From positions 144,835-208,834 of the forward strand of contig DATIDG010000049.1 in assembly GCA_035456405.1 (NCBI GenBank): a DNA stretch of 64,000 bases. Direction: 5' to 3'. Positions 3,208 through 35,735 of the stretch are shown here, piece by piece (position 1 is the first letter of the stretch; each line of letters begins with the position of its first letter). The DNA is from Burkholderiales bacterium. Its GTDB lineage: Bacteria > Pseudomonadota > Gammaproteobacteria > Burkholderiales > SG8-39. Below the pieces are notes generated by a model. That model did not search any database, was not told the DNA's origin, and saw nothing but the letters and a program-made list of their open reading frames with translations. The position numbers and the translations under genes were made by a program.

Positions 3208-3388
3208 GTTTCCTGGCGCGGCCCGAGACCTCGCCGGCCGGTGGCGCGACAAGTGAGCGTGACTTGCTTGTCATCCGCGGTCCCAAAGTGCGTAAGACGG
3301 TCATAGTGCCTCTCGTCACCGTCGATCACCGCATCCCACCGTAGGCAAATCAGCATGGGAGAGATGCGACGTCGCGTAAAATGCGCCC

Positions 3389-4198
3389 ATGCGCCGTCCG
3401 ACGTTGCGCTGGCTCCTCGTTGCGCTGCTCGCCGCACACGCAACGGCGCTCGCCCAGATGCCGGCGAGCGTCTTCCTCGAGGAGCTGACTTCCCGGGAAC
3501 TCGCCGCCGTTATACGTGCTGGCAAGACTACTATCCTGGTGCCAATCGGCGGCACCGAGCAGAATGGGCCGCACATGGTGCTCGGCAAGCACAACGTGCG
3601 CGCGAAGGTGCTGGCCGGCAAGATTGCGCGTGAGCTCGGCAACGCGCTGGTCGCCCCCGTCGTTGCCTACGTGCCCGAGGGCAGCGTCAATCCCCCGACC
3701 GGGCACATGCGTTACCCGGGAACGATCACGGTGCCGCCGGACGTGTACCGCAAGGTGCTCGATTCCGCCGCGCGCAGCTTCCGGCTCGCCGGATTCCGCG
3801 ACATCGTGTTTCTGGGCGATCACGGCGACTATCAGAAGGACAACGAGATCGTGGCCCGCCAACTCGATCGCGAATGGGCGGGCACCCCAGTCCACGTGTA
3901 CGCCATCGTCGAGTATTACCGGGCGGCAACCGATGGCTTTGCCAAGAACCTCAAGGCGCGCGGCTACAGCGATGCCGAGATCGGCCTTCATGCCGGGCTC
4001 GCGGACACGTCGCTCGCGTTGGCGGTCGACCCGGGACTCGTGCGACCGGAACAGCTGCAGTCCACGCCCGGGACGTGGGCCCCGACCGGCGTTTCGGGTG
4101 ATCCCCGGCGCGCCACCGCCGAGCTCGGCAAGCCGGGCGTCGATGCGATCGTGACCCAATCCGTGGCGGCCATCCGCGCAGCGGTCGCCCGAAGGTAG
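3389..4198 (+). CDS. Creatininase-family amidohydrolase with an N-terminal signal peptide
   Basis: MRRPTLRWLLVALLAAHATALAQ is a signal-like N-terminus. It is followed by ILVPIGGTEQNGPHMVLGKHN and FLGDHGDY, which resemble the creatininase/MftE-family core. Confidence 0.85.
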   Translation: MRRPTLRWLLVALLAAHATALAQMPASVFLEELTSRELAAVIRAGKTTILVPIGGTEQNGPHMVLGKHNVRAKVLAGKIARELGNALVAPVVAYVPEGSVNPPTGHMRYPGTITVPPDVYRKVLDSAARSFRLAGFRDIVFLGDHGDYQKDNEIVARQLDREWAGTPVHVYAIVEYYRAATDGFAKNLKARGYSDAEIGLHAGLADTSLALAVDPGLVRPEQLQSTPGTWAPTGVSGDPRRATAELGKPGVDAIVTQSVAAIRAAVARR

Positions 4199-7673: not shown

Positions 7674-8474
7674 TCAAGCGAGGAACTGCGCGCCCTGCAG
7701 GGCAAACCTCCTCGACCGGCCGGGAAGCTCGCTCCACGCGACGACGTGTCGCGGCAGGCGGGCGGGCTCCAGCGACTCGAGCACGGTGCGGAGCGCGACG
7801 ATCTCGCAGCCGCGGGCGCGCCAGCCTTCGAGCAGCCGCTCGAAGGCCGCAGCGAGGGCCCCGCCGGCGCTCTCGGCGCGCAGGGTGAAGACGTCGTCCG
7901 CCTCGCCGCCGGCGGCAGTCGCCTCGAGCACCCGCTCGTGCGCGGTGTCCGCGCGCTCCATCAGCTCGTCGAGCGTCGGGAGCGTGGTCGGGAGCTGCGG
8001 GCAGAGCACAAGCTCGCCCTCGCACACCGGCATGAAAGGGCGGATGCCGCGCGTGTCGGAAGCGTACTCGAGCCCGAACCGCTGCGTAAGGCGCAGCGCG
8101 TGGCGGCTTGTGTGCCATTCGGGCGCGGCGTGCGTGCGCGGCGGCTCGCCGGCCAAGCGTTCGAAGGTCTGGCACGCGCGACCCAGCGCGGATTCGACCC
8201 ATCGGGCATCGCCCGGCGCCACGCGGTGCGGCCAGCGCACCGTATCCCAGCCATACAGGCCGAGCTCGCAGCCGGCATCCCGCACGGCCTGCATGGCAGC
8301 CGACGCGCGTGACGCAATCGCCCGTCCCGGAAGGAGCCGGTGCAGGCGGTCGGGACCGAGGTTGAAGTAGAACGTGGCCGCGGCGCCGTGGCGCACGAGG
8401 ATCTCCACGATGCGCGGCACCGCGCGCACCGCCCCGCGTGCCGTCGCGACCGTGATGCGGAGTCCGACTCTCAC
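7674..8474 (-). CDS. ArnD-like polysaccharide deacetylase (4-deoxy-4-formamido-L-arabinose-lipid deformylase family)
   Basis: VRVGLRITVATARGAVRAVPRIVEIL...FYFNLGPD parallels the E. coli ArnD N-terminus as I recall it. The GTG at 8474 was chosen on that basis. The ORF track extends to 8582 through Arg/Gly-rich sequence that looks non-coding. Confidence 0.8.
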   Translation of the reverse strand: MRVGLRITVATARGAVRAVPRIVEILVRHGAAATFYFNLGPDRLHRLLPGRAIASRASAAMQAVRDAGCELGLYGWDTVRWPHRVAPGDARWVESALGRACQTFERLAGEPPRTHAAPEWHTSRHALRLTQRFGLEYASDTRGIRPFMPVCEGELVLCPQLPTTLPTLDELMERADTAHERVLEATAAGGEADDVFTLRAESAGGALAAAFERLLEGWRARGCEIVALRTVLESLEPARLPRHVVAWSELPGRSRRFALQGAQFLA

Positions 8475-26840: not shown

Positions 26841-27127
26841 CTATTTTCTCCGGAATATAGCCTAACTAGCTAAGTAAAATAGCTTAAATCGTCTAGCAGT
26901 GTCTTCCTGTGTCCAGGAGCGTCTGCCACCATCCAGCCGGTTTGGGGCGTTCCTGGGGCAGTTTTCCACGAACCCTGATCGAATTGGAGTAGCTTTCGGG
27001 GCAATTTTTGCGAGGCGCCGACCGATGATGAAAATCCTGACTCAGGGCGGCAGCTCAGATACCGAACCATCCGCGCGTGGCGCGCGTGACTCGTTCACTT
27101 GTTGAGCGCGATGGGTAGTCAAGAACG

Positions 27128-27610
27128 ATGAATAGCCCTCGGGCAAGCCGGCAACTCTGGTTAGCCGTCCGATGCCTGTTCCTGATCCTTTCTTTGTTGG
27201 GAGTTCTAACAGCTCGGAGCGAGCCGCTTGTTGGCCCTTCTGCGACACCTCATGAGGGAGAGCAGAAATCGGTACAGAAAACGGTCTTATGGGACCTCGT
27301 GGTTCTTGGTCGAATTGACGCGTGTTGGGTTTGTCAACACGGCCCGCCGCCGCACGTCAGCTATACAATAGTTCTTGCTGGGAAAGCACCGACGGGGAAG
27401 GCCCAGGGACAGATTGCCCTTGCGGAAATGTCACCACGGCTGCTGCCAGAAGGAGGTACTCCTATCTACAGGAGCCAACGAGAGGAGATCTGCTATCTGA
27501 AGACTGTCACGCTGCCAGCCAATGAGAGCGCAAGTGTCTACAAGCTAATCGATGTTGAGGAAGCGACACCCGAAAATCTGGCTAAGTTTCAGAGGACCGG
27601 CAAGCAATAA
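27128..27610 (+). CDS. Hypothetical secreted protein with a CxxC motif
   Basis: 160 aa with signal peptide LWLAVRCLFLILSLLGVLTA and a CWVC motif. I recognise no family. It lies in a lower-GC segment 34 nt upstream of the next gene. Confidence 0.6.
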   Translation: MNSPRASRQLWLAVRCLFLILSLLGVLTARSEPLVGPSATPHEGEQKSVQKTVLWDLVVLGRIDACWVCQHGPPPHVSYTIVLAGKAPTGKAQGQIALAEMSPRLLPEGGTPIYRSQREEICYLKTVTLPANESASVYKLIDVEEATPENLAKFQRTGKQ

Positions 27611-27656
27611 CTTGAACGAAACGATACTCGTCGAATAAAGAGCTGTGGGGGCGAAT

Positions 27657-29510
27657 ATGGGCACGAAGCAAAGTAGACGCTTTTCGATCACGCTGACCGT
27701 TGTGTGTACGTCGCTATTGTTTTCCTCGTTTGTTGCAGTTTCGATTGCTCAGGGCGAATCCGCGGGGGCACGGTCTGCGACACCTTATTATGACGAGGGA
27801 GAGGCGGCGGCTGTCGCCAGGACCCTTGTTACTCCCGGCCTGCGGACGTACAGAGCCGCAGGGGGGACGGACGTTCCGCTGATCGGAAGGAACGAACCCG
27901 CCGTCGCGGTCAACCCATGGGATCCCACCAACGTGGTGGTGGCCGGCCTGTTCGAAATTCGCGTTTCAACCGACACCGGAGTGACTTTCACTTCCGCTAC
28001 ACCATCCCCTGTACCCGGTACGCATGTTCGGTGCGGAGATCCCTCGGTGGCATTCGACAGTCGAGGGCGTCTTTTCTGGACGTTCCTTGGCTGCATTGGT
28101 AGCGGCATCGACGTTTTCATCGCCCAGGTTAACCCGTTAACCGGGGCCGTCATCGCTGGGCCCTTCAACGTGACTGCAGCCGCTGGCGTTCCCGGCAGCG
28201 CCGGTAATGGGAACGACAAGGAGTGGCTCGCCATCGACCGCTTCGTTGGAAGTCCCTTCCAAGACCGGATCTATGTGGTCTGGACGAACTTTCTGCCCAC
28301 GGGCGGAACTGTTGTGCAAACGACATTCTCGACCGATCAAGGAGTGAACTGGTCGCCAGCGTTGACGGTGTCGGCGGGTGGTGAGGGGTTTGTCTGGCCG
28401 AGCCACAATGCCGTGGCCTCCAATGGAGATGTCTATGTTTCGTACCATTCTCAACCGACTTTTGCCGCTAATGCGCCTGACGGGACAAGCGGCCGGATAT
28501 TTGTCTTGCGATCCACAGATGGTGGCGCATTGTTTCCGCAGAAGAATGCCGCCTACACAGGAGGCAACGCCGACATTACGTTCAATGTTCAGTTTGGCGT
28601 TCGGACTTTGAACCAGAATCGGTCGTGGACGCAGGGGGCCGCGCAGCCATGGGTATTGCCAGATCCGCTCAACGCCAACAATGTCTACGTGATAGCCGGT
28701 GACGATCCGACCAACGCGGCCCATGGTGGCACGAACGACGACCTAAATGTATATATCGTTCGCTCGACTGACTCTGGAAGCACGTGGAGCAGCCCGACTC
28801 GGATTGACCGGGCCCCGGCCAACAACCACTCGTTCTTCCCCACCGCGACAATCGACGACAAGACAGCATGCATTGTGGTCAACTGGTATGACACGCGGAA
28901 TGGCGCGACAAATGTGGATGGTAACTTCATGTTGGACCTGTTCACGACAATCAGCAACGATGGCGGTCTGACCTTTGCTTCTGAATCGCAGATTAACGAT
29001 GCGCCGTTCGATCCTGACTTAGGCGCACCAGATAGATTTCCCCCGACCCGGACTTTGCGGATTGGGGAGTACATCGGCGTGACAGTCTCCAATGGGCTAG
29101 CGCATTCGGTATGGACAGGCAACACCGCTACCGGTCAGCAGATCCTGTACGAGAATAGTCCGGCGAAATGCCACGTCACGGTGGACCTCGATATCAAGCC
29201 AGGAAGCGTTCCGAACTCGATTAACACGACGAGCAAGGGCGTGATCCCGGTGGCGATTCTGTCGACTGCAACTTTCGACGCGACCTCGGTCGATCCGCGC
29301 TCGGTGACTTTTGGCCCCGGTGCTGCGACGGAAGCGCACGGACGAGGACACATCGAGGACGTCAATGGCGACACCATTCAGGATCTCGTGTTGCATTTCA
29401 GCACGCAAGAAAGCGGGCTGGGCGTCGGCGACACACAAGCCTGCGTCGATGGCACGACGTATGGCGGCGCGCCGATTCATGGCTGCGATACGGTAAGGAT
29501 CGTCCGTTAG
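27657..29510 (+). CDS. Secreted BNR/Asp-box repeat (sialidase-fold-like) propeller protein
   Basis: Signal peptide. Five S-x-D-x-G-x-T-W/F boxes (STDTGVTF, STDQGVNW, STDGGALF, STDSGSTW, SNDGGLTF). The C-terminal roughly 110-aa domain is IKPGSVPNSIN...GVIPVAILS...HIEDVNGD. The start may be the GTG at 27645 instead. Confidence 0.8.
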   Translation: MGTKQSRRFSITLTVVCTSLLFSSFVAVSIAQGESAGARSATPYYDEGEAAAVARTLVTPGLRTYRAAGGTDVPLIGRNEPAVAVNPWDPTNVVVAGLFEIRVSTDTGVTFTSATPSPVPGTHVRCGDPSVAFDSRGRLFWTFLGCIGSGIDVFIAQVNPLTGAVIAGPFNVTAAAGVPGSAGNGNDKEWLAIDRFVGSPFQDRIYVVWTNFLPTGGTVVQTTFSTDQGVNWSPALTVSAGGEGFVWPSHNAVASNGDVYVSYHSQPTFAANAPDGTSGRIFVLRSTDGGALFPQKNAAYTGGNADITFNVQFGVRTLNQNRSWTQGAAQPWVLPDPLNANNVYVIAGDDPTNAAHGGTNDDLNVYIVRSTDSGSTWSSPTRIDRAPANNHSFFPTATIDDKTACIVVNWYDTRNGATNVDGNFMLDLFTTISNDGGLTFASESQINDAPFDPDLGAPDRFPPTRTLRIGEYIGVTVSNGLAHSVWTGNTATGQQILYENSPAKCHVTVDLDIKPGSVPNSINTTSKGVIPVAILSTATFDATSVDPRSVTFGPGAATEAHGRGHIEDVNGDTIQDLVLHFSTQESGLGVGDTQACVDGTTYGGAPIHGCDTVRIVR

Positions 29511-29534
29511 AACCGAGCCACCCAGTCAGAACGA

Positions 29535-29563
29535 AAGAGCGGTCCTCCGGGGCCGCTCTTCTT
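29535..29563 (+). terminator. Rho-independent-type terminator after the Asp-box protein gene
   Basis: AAGAGCGG...CCGCTCTT stem followed by CTT, 25 nt after the stop codon. Confidence 0.5.
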
Positions 29564-29942
29564 GCTCGCAGCCGTGGCTCGTGACCGTCCTGGGTGATAC
29601 GGTCATGGCTCATTCGCCAACCTAGCGGCGGGGCAGAACTCGGCGCACGACCACGCTGGATGGTGGGGGGGGTGCCAGCTAATTTCGTCGCGAGAAGTCG
29701 GTCCAGCAGGGGCACTCCGACGGACTCCGCCGAATGACCGGGGAGGCGGCGACGGCCGCGCTGAATGCTGCCGACGGTCATGCCGCTGCGTGGTGAGGTC
29801 GGAGTCATCGTCGCGATTGACATTCCTCAAAGCCCCCGCACAGGGACGGCGCAGATTATTCCAAATGGGAGTGTGTGGTAGCTAGCGAAAGGAGATGCAG
29901 AGGCATTCGCATTTCGCGTACCGTTTGCTAAGGAGGATGCAA

Positions 29943-30380
29943 ATGAAAAATGCAACGACAATTTCAAGTCTTGTTGGGATTGCGCTCTTTTGCACTGCGA
30001 GCGCGGCCCTGGCGCAAGCGAAGCCGCAGGCGAGGGTGGATTTCGGCGAGCGGGAGTACAGGTCGAGCTGCGCGGTCTGCCACGGACTGAGCGGGAAGGG
30101 CGACGGTCCCTACCAGCCGTTCCAGGCCAAGAGCCCCCCAAACCTCACGACGCTCTCCAAGGCGAACAGCGGGGTGTTCCCCTATCAACGCGTGTACGAG
30201 ATCATCGACGGCAGACAGGCGGTCGCGGCCCATGGCCCGCGTGACATGCCGATCTGGGGCGCGCGGTATCTGGCGGAGAGCGCGGGGTACTACATGGACG
30301 TTCCGTACGACCCGGAGGCCTTCGTCCGCACCCGCGTCTCGGCGCTCGTCGACTACGTGTATCGCATACAGGCGAAGTAA
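29943..30380 (+). CDS. Monohaem c-type cytochrome (periplasmic)
   Basis: CAVCH haem-binding motif, signal peptide ISSLVGIALFCTASAALAQA and a distal Met candidate in PRDMPIWG. AAGGAGG lies 6 nt upstream of the ATG at 29943. The track begins earlier, at 29895. Confidence 0.85.
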   Translation: MKNATTISSLVGIALFCTASAALAQAKPQARVDFGEREYRSSCAVCHGLSGKGDGPYQPFQAKSPPNLTTLSKANSGVFPYQRVYEIIDGRQAVAAHGPRDMPIWGARYLAESAGYYMDVPYDPEAFVRTRVSALVDYVYRIQAK

Positions 30381-30419
30381 CGAAGCCCGTGCATCGCGCG
30401 AGCGGGCCCACCGCCCCGC

Positions 30420-31142
30420 TTGCGGCGGGGTTCTTCTTTGCAGCGTCGGACTTTGACACGCAGAGTGAGGTCGGTCCTCCTGTTGTTCCTCGCGGTCTCC
30501 CCCTGGGGGTTGCTCGCCGGACCCGGGGCTGTCGGACCGGTACCGCACGAATGCGCTGCTCCACGAAACACCGTCGCGCTATCGTCCAGCCGTCAGGACG
30601 CACTTGACGCCTGCCAGGGCGCTCAGGCCGCAGTCGCATTTCTTGGCTCGCAAGGCTTTCAGGTTGGCGACAGGATCAAGATCGAGGTTGTTCGCACGTT
30701 GCCGGAGGGTGCCGGCCCGGCGGCGGCCGGCTGCTTTGTCCAGTCGGGCACGCGCGTCTTGGTCCTGACCTATGACAAGTTCAAGGCCAGGAGAACCTGG
30801 TTCACGGTCCCCGTCGACAGGAGGCTCTACCAGAGTGTCGCGACTCACGAAGTTGCTCACGCGCTCGCGTCCTGCAACTTTCGGATTCCCGCGCCCTCCA
30901 TTCAGGCCAAGGAGTACATCGCATTCGTGGCCATGTTCGCCACGATGAGCGACTCGCACCGGCGCAAGATCCTGGAGGCCTTTCCGGGCGAGGGATTCGA
31001 GGACGAATCGAGGATGTCGGCCATCGTCTATATGTTTGATCCGCCGCGATTCGGCGTCGAGGCCTACCGACACTATCTGAGGCCGGAAAACGGCCCCGCA
31101 TTTCTGCGCGCGATCCTCTCCGGCTCGGCGCTCGTGGACTGA
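30420..31142 (+). CDS. Hypothetical secreted protein with an HExxH...E zinc-metallopeptidase-like motif
   Basis: The hydrophobic N-terminus VLLLFLAVSPWGLLAG is followed by THEVAH and a Glu 18 residues later (KEYIAF). The start is uncertain (TTG at 30420 or GTG at 30465). Confidence 0.7.
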   Translation: MRRGSSLQRRTLTRRVRSVLLLFLAVSPWGLLAGPGAVGPVPHECAAPRNTVALSSSRQDALDACQGAQAAVAFLGSQGFQVGDRIKIEVVRTLPEGAGPAAAGCFVQSGTRVLVLTYDKFKARRTWFTVPVDRRLYQSVATHEVAHALASCNFRIPAPSIQAKEYIAFVAMFATMSDSHRRKILEAFPGEGFEDESRMSAIVYMFDPPRFGVEAYRHYLRPENGPAFLRAILSGSALVD

Positions 31143-31199
31143 CAGCGTCGTCCGTGTGCTTCGACGATTGCCGAGGAGAGCCTGCGCTGACTCGCCGTA

Positions 31200-31748
31200 C
31201 TACGCCGGCCGCAGCGGCGCCAGCTCCTGCTGCAGCCGCCTGCGGGCGCGATGCAGCGTCGTCCAAAGATTCGCGCTGGTGATGCCGAGCGCGCGGCACA
31301 CCTGGGTCGACTCGTGGCCGAGCACGTCGGCCATGAGGAAGGCCCGCGCCGCCTGGGCGGGCATGCGCTCGAGGCGAGCCTGGCAGGCCTCCCAGAAGCG
31401 GCGCCGCGCCTCCACGTTGAGCGGCTCGTGCGCGGCCGGCGCGGCACCGGCCAGGCGCTCGGCGACCTCGGCGCCGGTTGCGGTGTCGGCGTCGGCGAGC
31501 GCGTCGATGCTCACCGGCGCGCGCGTCCGCTCGCGGAAGCTGTCCGCGATCTTGTGCTTGAGGATCCCGACGAGCCAGGTGCGGACCGCGCTGCGCCCCT
31601 GGAAGCTGCAGCCGCCCTCGAGCGCGGCGACGAAGGTGTCCTGCACGAGGTCGCGAGCGACCTCGGCGTCGCGGACTTGCTGGAGGGCATACCGGTAGAG
31701 ATAGCGGCTGTGCTCCTGCAGCCCGTTCTGGTCGATCGTGATTGTCAT
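31200..31748 (-). CDS. ECF-type RNA polymerase sigma-70 factor
   Basis: 182 aa. Region 2 is DLVQDTFVAAL...RTWLVGILKHKIADSFR. Region 4 HTH is ESTQVCRALGITSANLWTTLHRARRRLQ. AGGAGA lies 6 nt upstream of the ATG. Confidence 0.92.
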   Translation of the reverse strand: MTITIDQNGLQEHSRYLYRYALQQVRDAEVARDLVQDTFVAALEGGCSFQGRSAVRTWLVGILKHKIADSFRERTRAPVSIDALADADTATGAEVAERLAGAAPAAHEPLNVEARRRFWEACQARLERMPAQAARAFLMADVLGHESTQVCRALGITSANLWTTLHRARRRLQQELAPLRPA

Positions 31749-31776
31749 GGCGTTCTCCTGGCGATTCGATCAGGCA

Positions 31777-32478
31777 TTAGCGCTCGGCGATGGCCGCGAC
31801 GACAGTCACGTCGCCATCCGCCGAGCGCAGCAGTTCGAGAGGCGCGCGCGCCACGTCGCGCCCGGTCGTGGCGATGCGTCGCGGCACCGCATCGGCCGAG
31901 CCCGAGGGCGCGACGACGAGGACTGCGACGGCGTTCCGGATCACCGGCGGAGTGAGCGTGGCGACGTAGTGGCCGTGCTCGAGGTCGTAGTCCGCGCGCA
32001 CGAGGCGCTCGATCTCGTCGAGCGCCCGCCCGCCGGGCATGAAGCCGCCGAGCCGGCCGTCGGCGTCCAGCGCGAGGACGACGAGATCGAAGCGCGGCAG
32101 CAGTCCGGTGCGCAGGCCGAAGAAGGCGCGCAACTCCTGCTCGTAGGAGGCGGCCTTCAGCGGATTCGGGTGCTCGGCGATCTCGAGATGGAGGGCGCTC
32201 TCCGGGATCGGCAGGCGGCGGGCGAGCGCCCGCGGGCCGAGAGCCCCGGCCGGTCCCGAGTCGCTCAGGAAGAGGTGCGTCGCGCGCCAGAAACGCTCGT
32301 CCGCGAGTGGTGCCACGGCGAACGCCTCGACCACCGGCGTGGTGAGCGCCGCGGGCGAGAAGGCGACGGTGAAGCGGCCGCTGCGTGCAAATGCCGCGCG
32401 ACCATGGGCCGCGATCCGGGCCAGCAGTGGCGCGGCGGCGTCGGTGGCGACTGGAGTCGGTGTCCCGTTGAAGCCCAC
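31777..32478 (-). CDS. 6-phosphogluconolactonase/NagB-fold protein with degenerate catalytic motifs
   Basis: The GTG at 32478 has AAGGAG 7 nt upstream. The layout matches 6PGL (RFTVAFSPAALTTP...W..THLFLSDSG...FDLVVLALDADGRLGGFMPG). The usual SGGSTP, DER and DGH motifs read SPAALTTP, DSG and DGR. Confidence 0.75.
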   Translation of the reverse strand: MGFNGTPTPVATDAAAPLLARIAAHGRAAFARSGRFTVAFSPAALTTPVVEAFAVAPLADERFWRATHLFLSDSGPAGALGPRALARRLPIPESALHLEIAEHPNPLKAASYEQELRAFFGLRTGLLPRFDLVVLALDADGRLGGFMPGGRALDEIERLVRADYDLEHGHYVATLTPPVIRNAVAVLVVAPSGSADAVPRRIATTGRDVARAPLELLRSADGDVTVVAAIAER

Positions 32479-32585
32479 TTCGGCACTCCTTTTCGTGACG
32501 AGGCGAATGATCGGCGGTCGCGCGCGCCGCGACCATTCGGGCGAGTGCGCAGCCGGACTCCGGGAAACTGCGGAAGCCACGGCCG

Positions 32586-32599
32586 GAACTAAGTAGTTC
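32586..32599. promoter_or_regulatory. Inverted repeat GAACTA-AG-TAGTTC in a divergent promoter region
   Basis: Perfect 6-bp arms separated by 2 bp, located between the pgl-like/ECF operon and the histidine-kinase operon. Confidence 0.3.
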
Positions 32600-32683
32600 T
32601 ACCGAGTGCGTCCCATTGGCCCCGCTGCTAAGGTACGCACACGCGGCCGGAGACCGCTGCGGCGGGAGAGACGGAGAACGTTG

Positions 32684-35125
32684 ATGAGCGCACCTGCAAA
32701 CGCGGCGACGGAGGCACGGCCGGCGACCACGGCGTCGGGCCCGGCGGGGCAGCTCGGTCGCATCGTCGTCCTCACCGTCGGCATCGCGGCGGCATACGTC
32801 CTTTCTGCGAAAGTCGCGCTCGCGCTCTTTCCCGCGACGAAATCGGTGGCGATGCTGTGGCCGTCCGCCGGCATCGCGCTCGCCGCGCTCCTCGTCTGGG
32901 GCATCCGGGCGCTCCCGGGGGTGTTCATCGGTTGCCTGATCGCTCATGTCTCCGCCGCCGACGACGCAGGCGGCGCCGTCGCTTCGGCTGGGCTGACGAC
33001 GGTCTACACGGCGGCCGCCTGGGTGCTCCTCGCGAACGTCGCACGGCTCGATCTCGGTCTGCGGCGCGTGTCGGACGTGCTCGCGCTCGCCGTGCTGGGT
33101 GCGGGAACCGTTGCGCTCACGAAGGCCGCGATTCGCGCCGCCGCGCTGATGGCGAACGGGGCGTGGGGTACGGAGGCCCTGCTGCAGACGGCGGTGAGCG
33201 CGCTCGCAACCGGCGTCGGCATCCTGATCGTCGCGCCGGTGTGCCTCACGCTCTATGCGGCGCGTCGCGACCCGGTGCCGCACGGGCGCCGCATCGAGCT
33301 CGCGCTGGTCGCGGCCGCGACGCTCGGCGTCTCCATCCTGGTGTTCAGCGAACGGTTCTCGCCGATGGTCGCGGTGGCGCAGCTTCCGTACGCCGTCTTC
33401 CCGGTGCTGTTCTGGGCCGGCCTGCGCTTCGGCCCGCGCGAAGTATCGGGCGTGCTGTTCCTGGCCGCGGTGGTGGCCGTCTGGTACACGTCGCTCGGCG
33501 AGGGCCCGTTCGCAGGCGGCGAGCGGATCGAAGGGATGGCGTCGCTCTACCTCTTTCTCACCGTCCTCGCGGTCACCTCGCTCCTCTTCGCCGCCGCGCT
33601 GCGGCAGCGCGAGGAGGCCGATGCCGCGGTCCACGCGAGCGAGCAGCGCAACCGCTTGCTGGTCGAGCGCATGAACGAAGGCCTGGCGATGCTCGATCGC
33701 AACGGCACGATGCACTACGTGAGCGACCGTTTTTGCGAGATCGCCGGCTACCGCCGCGAGGATCTGGTGGGCAAGCGGGGCGTCGAGCTGGCGGCCCCCG
33801 AGGGACGCGAGCAGTGGGAAGAGCATCACCGCGCGCGTCAGCGCGGGGTGGGCGACTCGTTCGAGATGACGATGGTGCGGGGAAACGGCGAGCGGATCGA
33901 CGTCAACGTCTCTCCGCGGCCGCTGTTCGACGAGAGCGGGGCCTATGCGGGCAGCTTCGCGCTCATCACCGACGTGACCGCGCGCAAACGCGCCGAGGCC
34001 GCGCTGCGCCAGAGCGAGAAGCAGTACCGCCTGCTCGTCGAGAATCAGACCGAGCTGATCCTCACCCTCGGCCGCATTGGTGTGGTGAGGTTCGCCAGCC
34101 CGTCCTACCGACAGCTCTTCGGCGCGGATGCGGCCGACGTCGTCGGCCGGCCGCTCGCTCTCGAGGTGCACGAGGACGACCGCGAGACGACCGCGCGCGC
34201 CTGGCAGGCGGCGTGGGCGCCGCCGTACTCGACGAGCATGGAGAACCGCGTGCTGACGCCGCGCGGCTGGGTGTGGCTCGCGTGGTCGATCCGCGCGGTG
34301 CGCGACGAACGTGCAGCAGCCGCGCCGGACGAGGTGGTGGCCGTGGCGCGCGACGTGACCGACCGGCACCGCGCCGAGGAGCAGGCGCGGCAGCACCTGC
34401 AGAGCCTGGCGCACGTGGCACGCGTGAGTTCAATGGGCGAGATGGCGAGCGCGATCGCGCACGAGGTCAACCAGCCGCTCACGGCGATCGCGAACTACGT
34501 GTACGCCTGCATGCGGCTGCTGCGCAGCGGCGCGTCGACCCAGGGCGAGGCGCTGCAGGTCATGCAGCGCGTCGCCACCGAGGCCGAGCGCGCGGGCGAG
34601 GTGGTGCGCAAGATGCGCAGCTTCGTGCGCGGCGAGGAAGGGCAGGTCAGCGCCGTCGACGCGAACTTCCTCGCCACGGAGGTGCTCCGGCTCGCGACGC
34701 CCGAGGCACGGCAGAGCGGCGTCGAGCTCGTCCCGGCGCTCGACTCCGGCCTGCCCGAGGTGTGCGCCGACTCGATCCAGATCCAGCAGGTCCTCCTGAA
34801 CCTGGTGCGCAATGCCGTCGAGGCGATCGTGGCCGGTGGTGCCCGCGAGCGCACCGTGCGGATCGAGACCGCGCGCGGCGAGCCCGGGTGCGTCGAGCTC
34901 CGGGTATCCGACACCGGCCCGGGGCTGGCGCCGGAGTCGCTGGAGAAGGTGTTCGAGCCGTTCTACACGACGAAGGCCGACGGCATCGGCATCGGGCTCG
35001 CGCTCAGCCGGTCGATTGCAGATGCGCATGGTGGCCGGCTCTGGGCGACCGGCGCGCCGGGCCGCGGGGCGACCTTCCATCTTTCCCTGCCGATCGCCAC
35101 CGAGACCGAGGAGCACGATGACTGA
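32684..35125 (+). CDS. MASE1-PAS-PAS sensor histidine kinase (FixL-like transmitter)
   Basis: ATG at 32684 with GGAGA upstream. About 300 aa of polytopic membrane N-terminus, then two PAS-like regions. H-box HEVNQPLTAI and ATPase motifs DTGPGL and GIGIGL. Confidence 0.9.
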   Translation: MSAPANAATEARPATTASGPAGQLGRIVVLTVGIAAAYVLSAKVALALFPATKSVAMLWPSAGIALAALLVWGIRALPGVFIGCLIAHVSAADDAGGAVASAGLTTVYTAAAWVLLANVARLDLGLRRVSDVLALAVLGAGTVALTKAAIRAAALMANGAWGTEALLQTAVSALATGVGILIVAPVCLTLYAARRDPVPHGRRIELALVAAATLGVSILVFSERFSPMVAVAQLPYAVFPVLFWAGLRFGPREVSGVLFLAAVVAVWYTSLGEGPFAGGERIEGMASLYLFLTVLAVTSLLFAAALRQREEADAAVHASEQRNRLLVERMNEGLAMLDRNGTMHYVSDRFCEIAGYRREDLVGKRGVELAAPEGREQWEEHHRARQRGVGDSFEMTMVRGNGERIDVNVSPRPLFDESGAYAGSFALITDVTARKRAEAALRQSEKQYRLLVENQTELILTLGRIGVVRFASPSYRQLFGADAADVVGRPLALEVHEDDRETTARAWQAAWAPPYSTSMENRVLTPRGWVWLAWSIRAVRDERAAAAPDEVVAVARDVTDRHRAEEQARQHLQSLAHVARVSSMGEMASAIAHEVNQPLTAIANYVYACMRLLRSGASTQGEALQVMQRVATEAERAGEVVRKMRSFVRGEEGQVSAVDANFLATEVLRLATPEARQSGVELVPALDSGLPEVCADSIQIQQVLLNLVRNAVEAIVAGGARERTVRIETARGEPGCVELRVSDTGPGLAPESLEKVFEPFYTTKADGIGIGLALSRSIADAHGGRLWATGAPGRGATFHLSLPIATETEEHDD

Positions 35126-35735
35126 GCCTACCGTCTACGTCATCGACGACGAGCCCGCGATCCGCGACTCCCTCGCGATGCTGCTCCGGTCGGTCGGGCT
35201 GCCATCGCGCACCTTTCCGACCGCGCCGGCGTTCCTGGAGGCGTTCGACGGAGCCGCCCCCGGCTGCGCGATCGCCGACGTCCGGATGCCGGGCATGAGC
35301 GGGCTCGAGTTGCAGGAGGCGCTGCGCGCGCGGGCTGCGCGGCTGCCGGTGATCATCATCACCGGCCACGGCGACATCGCGATGGCGGTGCGGGCGATGA
35401 AGGCCGGCGCCGCCGACTTCATCGAGAAGCCGTTCAACGAGCAGGTGCTGCTCGACGCGGTGCACCGGGCGCTGGCGCAGAACCGCGCCGACGCGCCGTC
35501 CGCGGGCGCGAACCGCACGGAGATCGAGGCGCGCGTGGCGACGCTGACCCCGCGCGAGCGCGAGGTGATGCTGCTCATCGCCGAGGGGCGGCCCAACAAG
35601 GTGGTGGCGACGCGGCTAGGGTTGTCGACTCGAACCGTGGAAGTTCACCGCGCGAAGGTCATGGAGAAGATGAGCGCCCGCTCGCTCGCCGAGCTCGTCC
35701 GCATGGCGATCGCCTGCGACCTCATCAAGCCGTGA
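35118..35735 (+). CDS. FixJ/LuxR-family response regulator
   Basis: MTEPTVYVIDDEPAIRDSL receiver domain (DVRMPGMSG). C-terminal LuxR HTH LTPREREVMLLIAEGRPNKVVATRLGLSTRTVEVHR. It overlaps the kinase gene by 8 nt. Confidence 0.93.
   Translation: MTEPTVYVIDDEPAIRDSLAMLLRSVGLPSRTFPTAPAFLEAFDGAAPGCAIADVRMPGMSGLELQEALRARAARLPVIIITGHGDIAMAVRAMKAGAADFIEKPFNEQVLLDAVHRALAQNRADAPSAGANRTEIEARVATLTPREREVMLLIAEGRPNKVVATRLGLSTRTVEVHRAKVMEKMSARSLAELVRMAIACDLIKP

Follow-up and report, generated by a model that had tools for sequence, protein, structure and literature searches.

A 64-kb stretch of DNA from an uncultured soil Burkholderiales bacterium (hereafter the window) contains a two-gene operon in which a degenerate homologue of 6-phosphogluconolactonase (6PGL) precedes a sigma factor of the extracytoplasmic function (ECF) type, and which is divergent from genes for a sensor histidine kinase and a FixJ-type response regulator. 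Our preferred reading, held with a probability of about 0.45, is that these genes form a sigma factor cassette that is driven by the two-component system (TCS) and is probably autoregulated, with the 6PGL homologue (pseudo-6PGL, product of the pgl-like gene) as a co-expressed, non-catalytic accessory. Here, the MASE1 and PAS domains of the kinase would serve to sense a membrane or redox signal, and the phosphorylated FixJ-type regulator would act at a GGTAGnnCTAC repeat. The sigma factor would reinforce its own operon from a GTAGTTTCCC-N21-CCGAAT promoter, and its activity would be set mainly by transcription, its zinc-binding anti-sigma (ZAS) partner having been lost. The pseudo-6PGL, probably descended from a lactonase-like gene of a metal/oxidative-stress regulon of the clade, would be made together with the sigma factor as a non-catalytic accessory or regulon member, and probably binds something in the cascade rather than catalysing.

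The pseudoenzyme and its sigma factor

The original prediction described an orphan ECF sigma factor with a co-oriented partner of 233 residues and 6PGL/NagB layout 28 nt upstream, and both the gene coordinates and the Pfam assignments agree with this description. The upstream protein matches Glucosamine_iso (PF01182) with 52.2 bits, relative to a cut-off of 27, and scores 43.5 bits with the NCBIfam pgl equivalog model TIGR01198, below the cut-off of 124.45. Its length equals that of its nearest homologue (P0001; related proteins and loci are designated by P and L numbers), and its GTG start codon at position 32478 is preceded, 7 nt upstream, by AAAAGGAG.

Motifs were compared in a MAFFT alignment with 11 canonical 6PGLs from unrelated genomes. 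The strings FSPAALTTP, FLSDSG and LALDADGRLGGFMPG, on which the predicted loss of catalytic residues had been based, are all present and occupy the positions claimed. The phosphate-binding loop SGG[ST]TP is missing, the canonical ALSGGSTP being replaced by AFSPAALT, of which SPAALT is kept across the subfamily. The canonical FWGDERxVPPDxxDSNY is reduced to FLSDS followed by a deletion of ∼8 residues, with which the ligand-contacting Arg of the DER motif is gone. In place of LGxGxDGHTASLFPG the protein has LALDADGRLGGFMPG, where the DGH histidine, the proposed catalytic base, is replaced by Arg (DGR, with DGQ in a small number of members) and RLGGFMP stands for HTASLFP. Two further losses go beyond the original list, namely the change of YRITLT to YVATLT, in which the Arg/Lys position is taken by Val, and that of GxxKA to GSADA, in which Lys is lost. 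The key 6-phosphogluconate-binding residues assigned to the Giardia enzyme by alignment to the T. brucei complex 3E7F are Thr, Arg, His, Gln, Arg and Lys, the DER Arg equivalent being among them (PMC8399836), and the equivalents of at least five of these six are absent from the window protein. Thus, the alignment upholds the predicted loss of catalytic residues and extends it to the substrate-binding Thr, Arg, Arg/Lys and Lys contacts, leaving in window-type proteins a pocket lined by Ala, Leu and Gly. By the same token, the accompanying suggestion of a sugar-phosphate-sensing fold did not hold up well: since the phosphate and carboxylate contacts of the ancestral pocket are gone, sugar-phosphate sensing through that pocket is unlikely.

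The AlphaFold2 model of the pseudo-6PGL (pLDDT 82.9, pTM 0.85) is a single alpha/beta domain. Its top Foldseek matches are 6PGLs, including those of trypanosomes and mycobacteria (6VYE, 2J0E, 3E7F and 3OC6; TM 0.72, E ∼1e-12 to 1e-13); NagB deaminases rank after these, and a match to LsrR is weak. The substitutions are kept across 36 family members, in which 16 alignment columns are invariant, and orthologues at 45-85% identity have intact open reading frames (ORFs). Ratios of nonsynonymous to synonymous substitution (dN/dS) of 0.29-0.51 were obtained for pgl-like orthologue pairs at dS 0.5-0.8, with 0.19-0.42 for the sigma factor as a comparison. Given the conserved substitutions and these dN/dS values, the pgl-like product is, as judged from sequence and model, a true 6PGL-fold pseudoenzyme under purifying selection, a maintained protein rather than a wreck. 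The family is rare, an exhaustive search of 1.84 billion proteins having returned five cluster representatives at E ≤ 1e-30. Neither anti-sigma domain helices nor an HxxxCxxC motif were found in the window protein, for which Pfam and NCBIfam give only Glucosamine_iso and pgl, and it is devoid of cysteine.

The sigma factor comprises Sigma70_r2 (residues 11-76) and Sigma70_r4_2 (residues 123-172), with no sigma-3 domain. Its sequence is 100% identical to a protein listed by NCBI for a Burkholderiales metagenome-assembled genome. The sigma factor passes TIGR02937 (60.4 bits; cut-off 42.9) and falls short of the TIGR02943 cut-off of 162.2 with 137.1 bits; its clade spans 95-137 bits on the latter model and the ZAS-linked sisters 170-212 bits. 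A metagenome scan with the sigma factor alignment gave a sister set of 77 loci (36-45% identity), and in 65 of the 71 with at least 200 nt of downstream sequence an ORF containing HxxxCxxC immediately follows the sigma gene; one such product passes an NCBIfam anti-sigma model. By contrast, none of the clade loci has a ZAS gene directly downstream of the sigma gene; ZAS homologues were found neither in the window nor next to a clade sigma factor. In the window and the clade loci, the search for ZAS homologues and HxxxCxxC ORFs yielded nothing more than a spurious out-of-frame match and, in L041, a separate pair. Within the window, the only match to the motif is HAGRCARC in a 169-residue ORF (7964-8470, minus strand), which is probably a spurious high-GC ORF.

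In a neighbour-joining tree, the pgl-linked sigma factors form one clade that is sister to the ZAS-linked clade, with the L031 protein as a long-branch exception. As far as sequence comparison reaches, the clade is thereby shown to have branched off the ZAS-linked TIGR02943 family and to have no anti-sigma gene, so the original observation that the sigma factor lacks its usual anti-sigma neighbour applies to the whole clade. Three sigma-4 residues are typical of the clade (Cys122, His145 and Thr163, each in 92% of members), whereas the residues most frequent there in the ZAS-linked sisters are Leu (36%), Leu (56%) and Val (100%). The clade-specific residues could represent a new interface or sensing site in sigma-4. 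The L031 sigma factor groups in the tree with L076 (702-2552), in which two tandem ECF sigma genes are followed by an HxxxCxxC anti-sigma gene.

Distribution and promoter region of the cassette

The genes for the pseudo-6PGL and the sigma factor adjoin in at least seven different genomic contexts, usually together with the TCS. The context of the window itself, in which cysE, spoU, suhB and the regulator and kinase genes are divergent from pgl-like, sigma and mutS, recurs in L001, L003 and L006 (window-type loci). The same divergent arrangement of regulator and kinase relative to pgl-like and sigma was observed with other flanking genes in L011 (cNMP-binding gene downstream), L031 (patatin gene downstream), L033/L034 (AhpD-like CMD gene downstream) and L035/L036 (cdsA context), and the four-gene module is also present in L043 and L045. 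The L031 pgl-like gene is truncated (∼198 residues, DGH loop deleted) and overlaps the sigma start by 4 nt; the gaps between the two genes in other relatives are 22, 22, 27, 17 and 19 nt. In L039/L040 and L041 the pgl-like gene is upstream of the sigma gene with no adjacent divergent kinase gene, and in L125 all four genes are present in a different order (sigma> <kinase pgl-like> <regulator). The kinase is co-conserved with the operon in the window-type loci and in L011, L031, L033, L035, L043 and L045. Given this recurrence in at least seven contexts, the pairing of sigma factor and pseudo-6PGL, for which co-occurrence had been proposed as a check, is not a matter of chance synteny. The cassette has been kept at several genome locations and so probably works as one unit.

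No terminator-like site was found between the pgl-like and sigma genes in a minus-strand scan of positions 30900-32750. The kinase start is probably the ATG at 32684, giving 813 residues as in L001, rather than the listed GTG at 32606, because the orthologues are 813 residues long. Kinase stop and regulator start overlap by 4 nt, and the FixJ-like regulator scores 253.6 bits with NCBIfam NF006900, just under the cut-off of 255. The window kinase carries MASE1, in place of which the orthologous kinase cores of L041 (6762-9428), L125 and L126 (4276-7233) have extra PAS domains and those of L041 and L126 also GAF domains. In two loci that otherwise differ in context (L033, 659-850, and L035, 734-925, both minus strand), a 63-residue signal-peptide protein ending in YDLVDNYNY is encoded directly after the regulator gene; it has no counterpart in the window. 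A 60-residue ORF (MKSILDRSFRYTPSFETDLRKTFERIR...) located 2 nt after the sigma stop in L039 (4637-4819) and L040 (5530-5712) was considered as a mini anti-sigma factor and rejected; neither L041 nor any window-type locus has it, and it is therefore unlikely to be a general partner.

Kinase and pgl-like genes share an intergenic region at 32479-32683. Here, the bipartite motif GTAGTTTCCC-N21-CCGAAT precedes the operon; it occurs nowhere else in the window, for which the expected number of chance matches is 0. The motif is found in the same register in L001, L003, L006, L011, L035 and L043, directly upstream of the sigma gene in L041 and L044 (at most 3 mismatches) and, by eye, also in L039, L125 and L037. 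It further precedes bufA1 in L124, in an operon of bufferin, DoxX and pseudo-6PGL genes. When 211 kb of clade loci were scanned with up to 3 mismatches, all 10 matches fell at expected places, whereas 356 kb of sister loci gave five weak matches with no positional pattern. The motif is absent upstream of the ZAS-linked sister sigma genes. The corresponding upstream regions of the sister sigma genes (L046-L122) contain TTTCAAG in 22 of 72 loci and GCTTGC in 10 of 72, with several TAGAT-like sequences discernible by eye.

Upstream of the bipartite motif lies the conserved element CACTCGGTAGAACTACTTAG, which also occurs upstream of the sigma gene in L037 and L044. On these data the bipartite motif may be the dedicated promoter of the cassette, dependent on the sigma factor itself and/or on the FixJ-type regulator, and we infer the GGTAGnnCTAC repeat to be a candidate binding site for that regulator. 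Neither a sigma-70-like promoter nor an Rfam match was detected on the operon strand in a scan of 30900-32750. Related ECF sigma factors use -10 boxes of the CGAA type. A literature search for CCGAAT as a known ECF -10 element was unproductive. A sigma-54 reading of a CTGGC...GC stretch was discarded, this stretch not being conserved and the regulator having no AAA+ domain. Within the 5' leader of the pgl-like gene (32479-32530), a GATCATC element and a CGTC...AGGAG sequence are conserved among the window-type loci (alignment A3); the leader has no Rfam match.

More distant relatives of the pseudo-6PGL are associated with bufferin genes. Bufferins are copper-stress peptides whose gene clusters are under ECF sigma factor control in Caulobacter (PMC11626156, PMC12452194). 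The sister family P0156-P0179, which is less degenerate, reaches 119.5 bits with TIGR01198 and keeps the DGH/DAH histidine; GGSTP, DER and the Arg/Lys contacts are lost. Two members of this family are encoded at the end of bufA1-MNIO-DUF2063-DoxX operons, L124 and L126 carrying the upstream motif. In the bufferin operons, the genes of these members show translational coupling to SDR or DoxX-NDH2 genes and are followed by genes for a cyclase, GMC oxidoreductase, GH63 and MIP, and the operons are divergent from a TCS orthologous to that of the window (477 bits between the kinases). Accessory genes of these operons (DUF302, DUF1622, SDR, GH63, MIP and patatin) also flank the sigma gene in L037, L039 and L041. 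Given the shared accessory genes and the orthologous TCS, the pgl-like gene behaves as a member of a metal/redox-stress set that is tied to the TCS and sigma factor, and the regulon is probably related to metal or oxidative stress. No bufferin genes are present in the window, and in the window-type lineage the pgl-like gene is the sole member of the set left beside the sigma gene.

Four cysteines (in TCGADTT, SCSCGTP and RHCVTF) accompany the DGH histidine in the sigma-linked L039 protein (3295-4020) and in P0156-P0165; they occupy the former positions of the phosphate loop, of DER and of the contacting Arg, and the former pocket could house a metal or redox site. In L123 (1554-6999) and L126 (7531-20795), genes for pseudo-6PGL, SDR, a cyclase, GMC oxidoreductase, two GH63/MGH1-like hydrolases, MIP and a DoxX-NDH2 fusion extend the bufA1-MNIO-DUF2063-DoxX bufferin cluster.

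The features of the window locus are collected in the table below. Downstream of the sigma gene, the convergent HExxH protein noted in the original prediction was identified as a DUF6639 protein containing HEVAH. It lies at the edge of a lower-GC block between sigma and mutS (26870-31142; GC 0.55-0.65, compared with 0.70-0.74 around it) that is absent from L001, L003 and L006 and is probably a horizontally acquired islet. Further genes of the block encode a 160-residue ORF (27128-27610), a 621-residue BNR/sialidase-like secreted protein (27645-29510) and a c-type cytochrome (29895-30380). Because its gene belongs to an insert that is missing from relatives, the DUF6639 protein is not a conserved partner, and it was ruled out as a partner of the sigma factor.

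Coordinates of features at the pgl-like/sigma locus (window positions)
Feature	Position	Strand	Remarks
Pseudo-6PGL (pgl-like) coding sequence, 233 residues	31777..32478	-	First gene of the operon; assigned by PF01182, motif alignment, AlphaFold2/Foldseek and dN/dS
Spacer from pgl-like stop to sigma start, 28 nt	31749..31776	-	Holds CAGGAGA, the ribosome-binding site of sigma
ECF (group 4) sigma factor, 182 residues	31200..31748	-	Sigma70_r2 and Sigma70_r4_2; TIGR02943 offshoot with no anti-sigma gene
Bipartite motif GCAGTTTCCC-N21-CCGAAT	32535..32571	-	Candidate promoter of the pgl-like/sigma operon
CACTCGGTAGAACTACTTAG, imperfect inverted repeat GGTAG-aa-CTAC	32589..32608	-	Candidate site for the FixJ-type regulator
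Sensor histidine kinase (Pfam: MASE1, two PAS, HisKA, HATPase_c)	32684..35125	+	Divergent from the operon
FixJ-type response regulator (Pfam: Response_reg, GerE/LuxR helix-turn-helix)	35121..35735	+	
DUF6639 HExxH protein (HEVAH)	30420..31142	+	PF20344, 153.5 bits; convergent on sigma

Alternative roles of the pseudoenzyme

As the alternative to a soluble anti-sigma factor, the original prediction had put forward that the divergent kinase and the FixJ-type regulator control the sigma factor at the transcriptional level. Because the TCS is co-conserved with the operon, and because an inverted repeat and a promoter motif occur in the shared intergenic region, this alternative seems, on comparative grounds, at least as well supported as the anti-sigma proposal. 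Several points nevertheless weigh against a TCS-driven cassette with an accessory pseudoenzyme. All members of the cassette are known from metagenomes only, and the term accessory leaves the pseudo-6PGL with no specified molecular role. The bipartite motif is equally assignable to the sigma factor or to the regulator, and its 21-nt spacing is longer than is usual between the -35 and -10 elements of ECF promoters. In the clade loci L037 and L039, no TCS occurs within 5 kb. Finally, a direct partner of the sigma factor would be an equally good fit to the tight coupling of the two genes, which reaches a 4-nt overlap in L031, and to the coincident ZAS gene loss.

Such a partner would be a new soluble anti-sigma factor or co-sigma modulator that has replaced the lost ZAS protein, with the sigma factor being freed by a ligand- or redox-dependent change in the remodelled pocket. 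This possible but rather unlikely role is consistent with the loss by the clade of a gene present in 65 of 71 sisters and the gain of a pgl-like neighbour, with tight co-transcription across gaps of 17-28 nt (or the L031 overlap), and with the purifying selection on the pseudoenzyme. The pgl-like gene also shares the candidate promoter of the sigma factor, as in autoregulated sigma/anti-sigma pairs, and the sigma-4 residues C122, H145 and T163 could form the new interface. Anti-sigma genes located upstream of their sigma genes have precedents in nepR-ecfG and rsbW-sigB. Anti-sigma activity has been reported for a TolB-like protein that lacks any anti-sigma domain (PMC3397946). However, the pseudo-6PGL has neither anti-sigma-domain helices nor HxxxCxxC, and its relatives in bufferin operons have no sigma gene within 10 kb, which weakens the proposal. 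Moreover, L037 and L044 possess the sigma factor and promoter motif with no adjacent pgl-like gene, and in L125 the pgl-like and sigma genes are separated. The pgl-like and sigma genes of L039 and L041 have the promoter motif between them and therefore need not be co-transcribed. It is doubtful that the 6PGL fold is a structurally new class of soluble factor, with anti-sigma or sigma-modulating function, that replaced the ancestral zinc-binding one in a single ECF lineage, along a path from enzyme through partly degenerate bufferin/stress regulon member to dedicated sigma regulator.

The remaining explanations are less probable. In one of them the protein has kept an enzymatic activity, as a 6PGL paralogue whose target would now be a non-phosphorylated lactone or some other small molecule supplied by neighbouring oxidoreductases, and would be a mere member of the regulon located in the sigma operon. 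Relatives of the L039/L126 type, which have lost only the phosphate-binding residues, keep the DGH/DAH histidine and reach 119.5 bits with TIGR01198, would suit this role, as would the SDR, cyclase, GMC oxidoreductase and GH63 genes that follow the L126 gene and could supply sugar lactones. In the window-type subfamily, by contrast, the histidine is Arg or Gln, the DER region is deleted, Ala, Leu and Gly line the pocket, and the loci contain no partner enzymes, and the explanation is improbable. The protein might alternatively act on the TCS rather than on the sigma factor, as an accessory of the kinase in the cytoplasm or as its feedback inhibitor, functionally like FixT for FixL. The pgl-like gene divergently adjoins the kinase gene in every TCS-containing locus, lies between kinase and regulator and apart from sigma in L125, and in L126 belongs to an operon that faces the TCS with no sigma gene nearby; but L039/L040 retain it beside sigma with no TCS in view, the protein resembles FixT-type receiver proteins in neither sequence nor fold, and the argument is one of gene neighbourhood alone; this role is more improbable still. 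Least probable by far, and already disfavoured, is that the gene is a decaying, functionless relic carried along by synteny. The truncated L031 copy and the tiny size of the subfamily might be so explained, but the intact reading frames, the dN/dS range, the invariant columns and the retention of the gene in several unrelated contexts all argue otherwise.

Relation to known systems

ECF sigma factors with no recognisable anti-sigma factor remain an open problem, and reviews describe several groups for which a conserved enzyme-like neighbour is the only clue. The present lineage is a clean case in that the ancestral state (ZAS partner) and the derived state (pseudo-6PGL and TCS) are both visible in sister clades, with intermediate pseudoenzyme forms surviving in bufferin and redox operons. 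Should the sigma factor or the kinase indeed be regulated by the pseudoenzyme, the latter would provide a new anti-sigma or accessory fold and a worked example of the passage from enzyme to regulator. Otherwise, the locus would still define a TCS-to-ECF cascade, small and not described before, whose predicted promoter motif could help to find its regulon. Reach and tractability are limited by the rarity of the family, which is known from uncultured Burkholderiales only. A full-text literature search found no paper linking 6PGL-like proteins to ECF or anti-sigma regulation. The ECF reclassification paper makes no mention of a 6PGL association, and a review on non-canonical ECFs names other enzyme-like neighbours but not 6PGL.

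The window protein resembles 6PGL (Pgl/DevB/Sol3, TIGR01198; 3E7F, 2J0E, 3OC6 and 1Y89) in fold (TM 0.72) and layout, and shares with it the structural motifs YEQELRAFF, LPRFDL and TLTPPVI. It differs in that the GGSTP loop, DER Arg, DGH His and Arg/Lys contacts are replaced or deleted, in a model score that is a third of the cut-off, and in being encoded in a sigma factor operon rather than with zwf or edd. The ISOCOT-fold sensor domains of DeoR, SorC and LsrR regulators are non-catalytic ligand sensors of related alpha/beta fold; these are fused to a DNA-binding domain and keep their sugar-phosphate contacts, whereas the window protein stands alone and has lost them. That a 6PGL fold can lose its activity and assume a role outside metabolism has a precedent in the yeast paralogues Sol1 and Sol2, which have no lactonase activity (PMC8151747), although these are eukaryotic, are linked to tRNA export and not to a transcription factor, and are of independent origin. 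Among bufferin systems, the pseudo-6PGL relatives terminate bufA1-MNIO-DUF2063-DoxX operons with the same upstream motif, but the published clusters are under SigF/NrsF, a different ECF group with an NrsF anti-sigma factor (PMC11626156, PMC12452194), and the window has no bufferin genes. The two bufferin surveys do not mention 6PGL and report extra conserved genes only in very low proportions.

The closest relatives of the window sigma factor are the TIGR02943 sigma factors with small ZAS anti-sigma proteins, from which it is distinguished by its sub-cut-off score, the missing downstream ZAS gene and an upstream motif unlike the TTTCAAG...GCTTGC...TAGAT of its sisters. TCS-controlled ECF sigma factors with no anti-sigma factor are an established class, comprising ECF32 (HrpL), ECF39 (SigE-CseABC) and, by prediction, ECF234 (PMC7826278, PMC8999054). 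The window sigma factor was rejected as a member of ECF234, the model member of which is from Paenibacillus. The cassette shares with all three groups a TCS beside an ECF sigma gene that has no anti-sigma partner, and with the CseA case an additional operon-encoded accessory. It departs from them in belonging to another sigma lineage, in its FixL/FixJ-like TCS, through which we infer the control to be exerted here, and in an accessory that is a cytoplasmic pseudoenzyme rather than a lipoprotein. Thus, the TCS-linked ECF sigma factor with no anti-sigma factor belongs to a known class, and what is new here is the proposed pseudoenzyme accessory.

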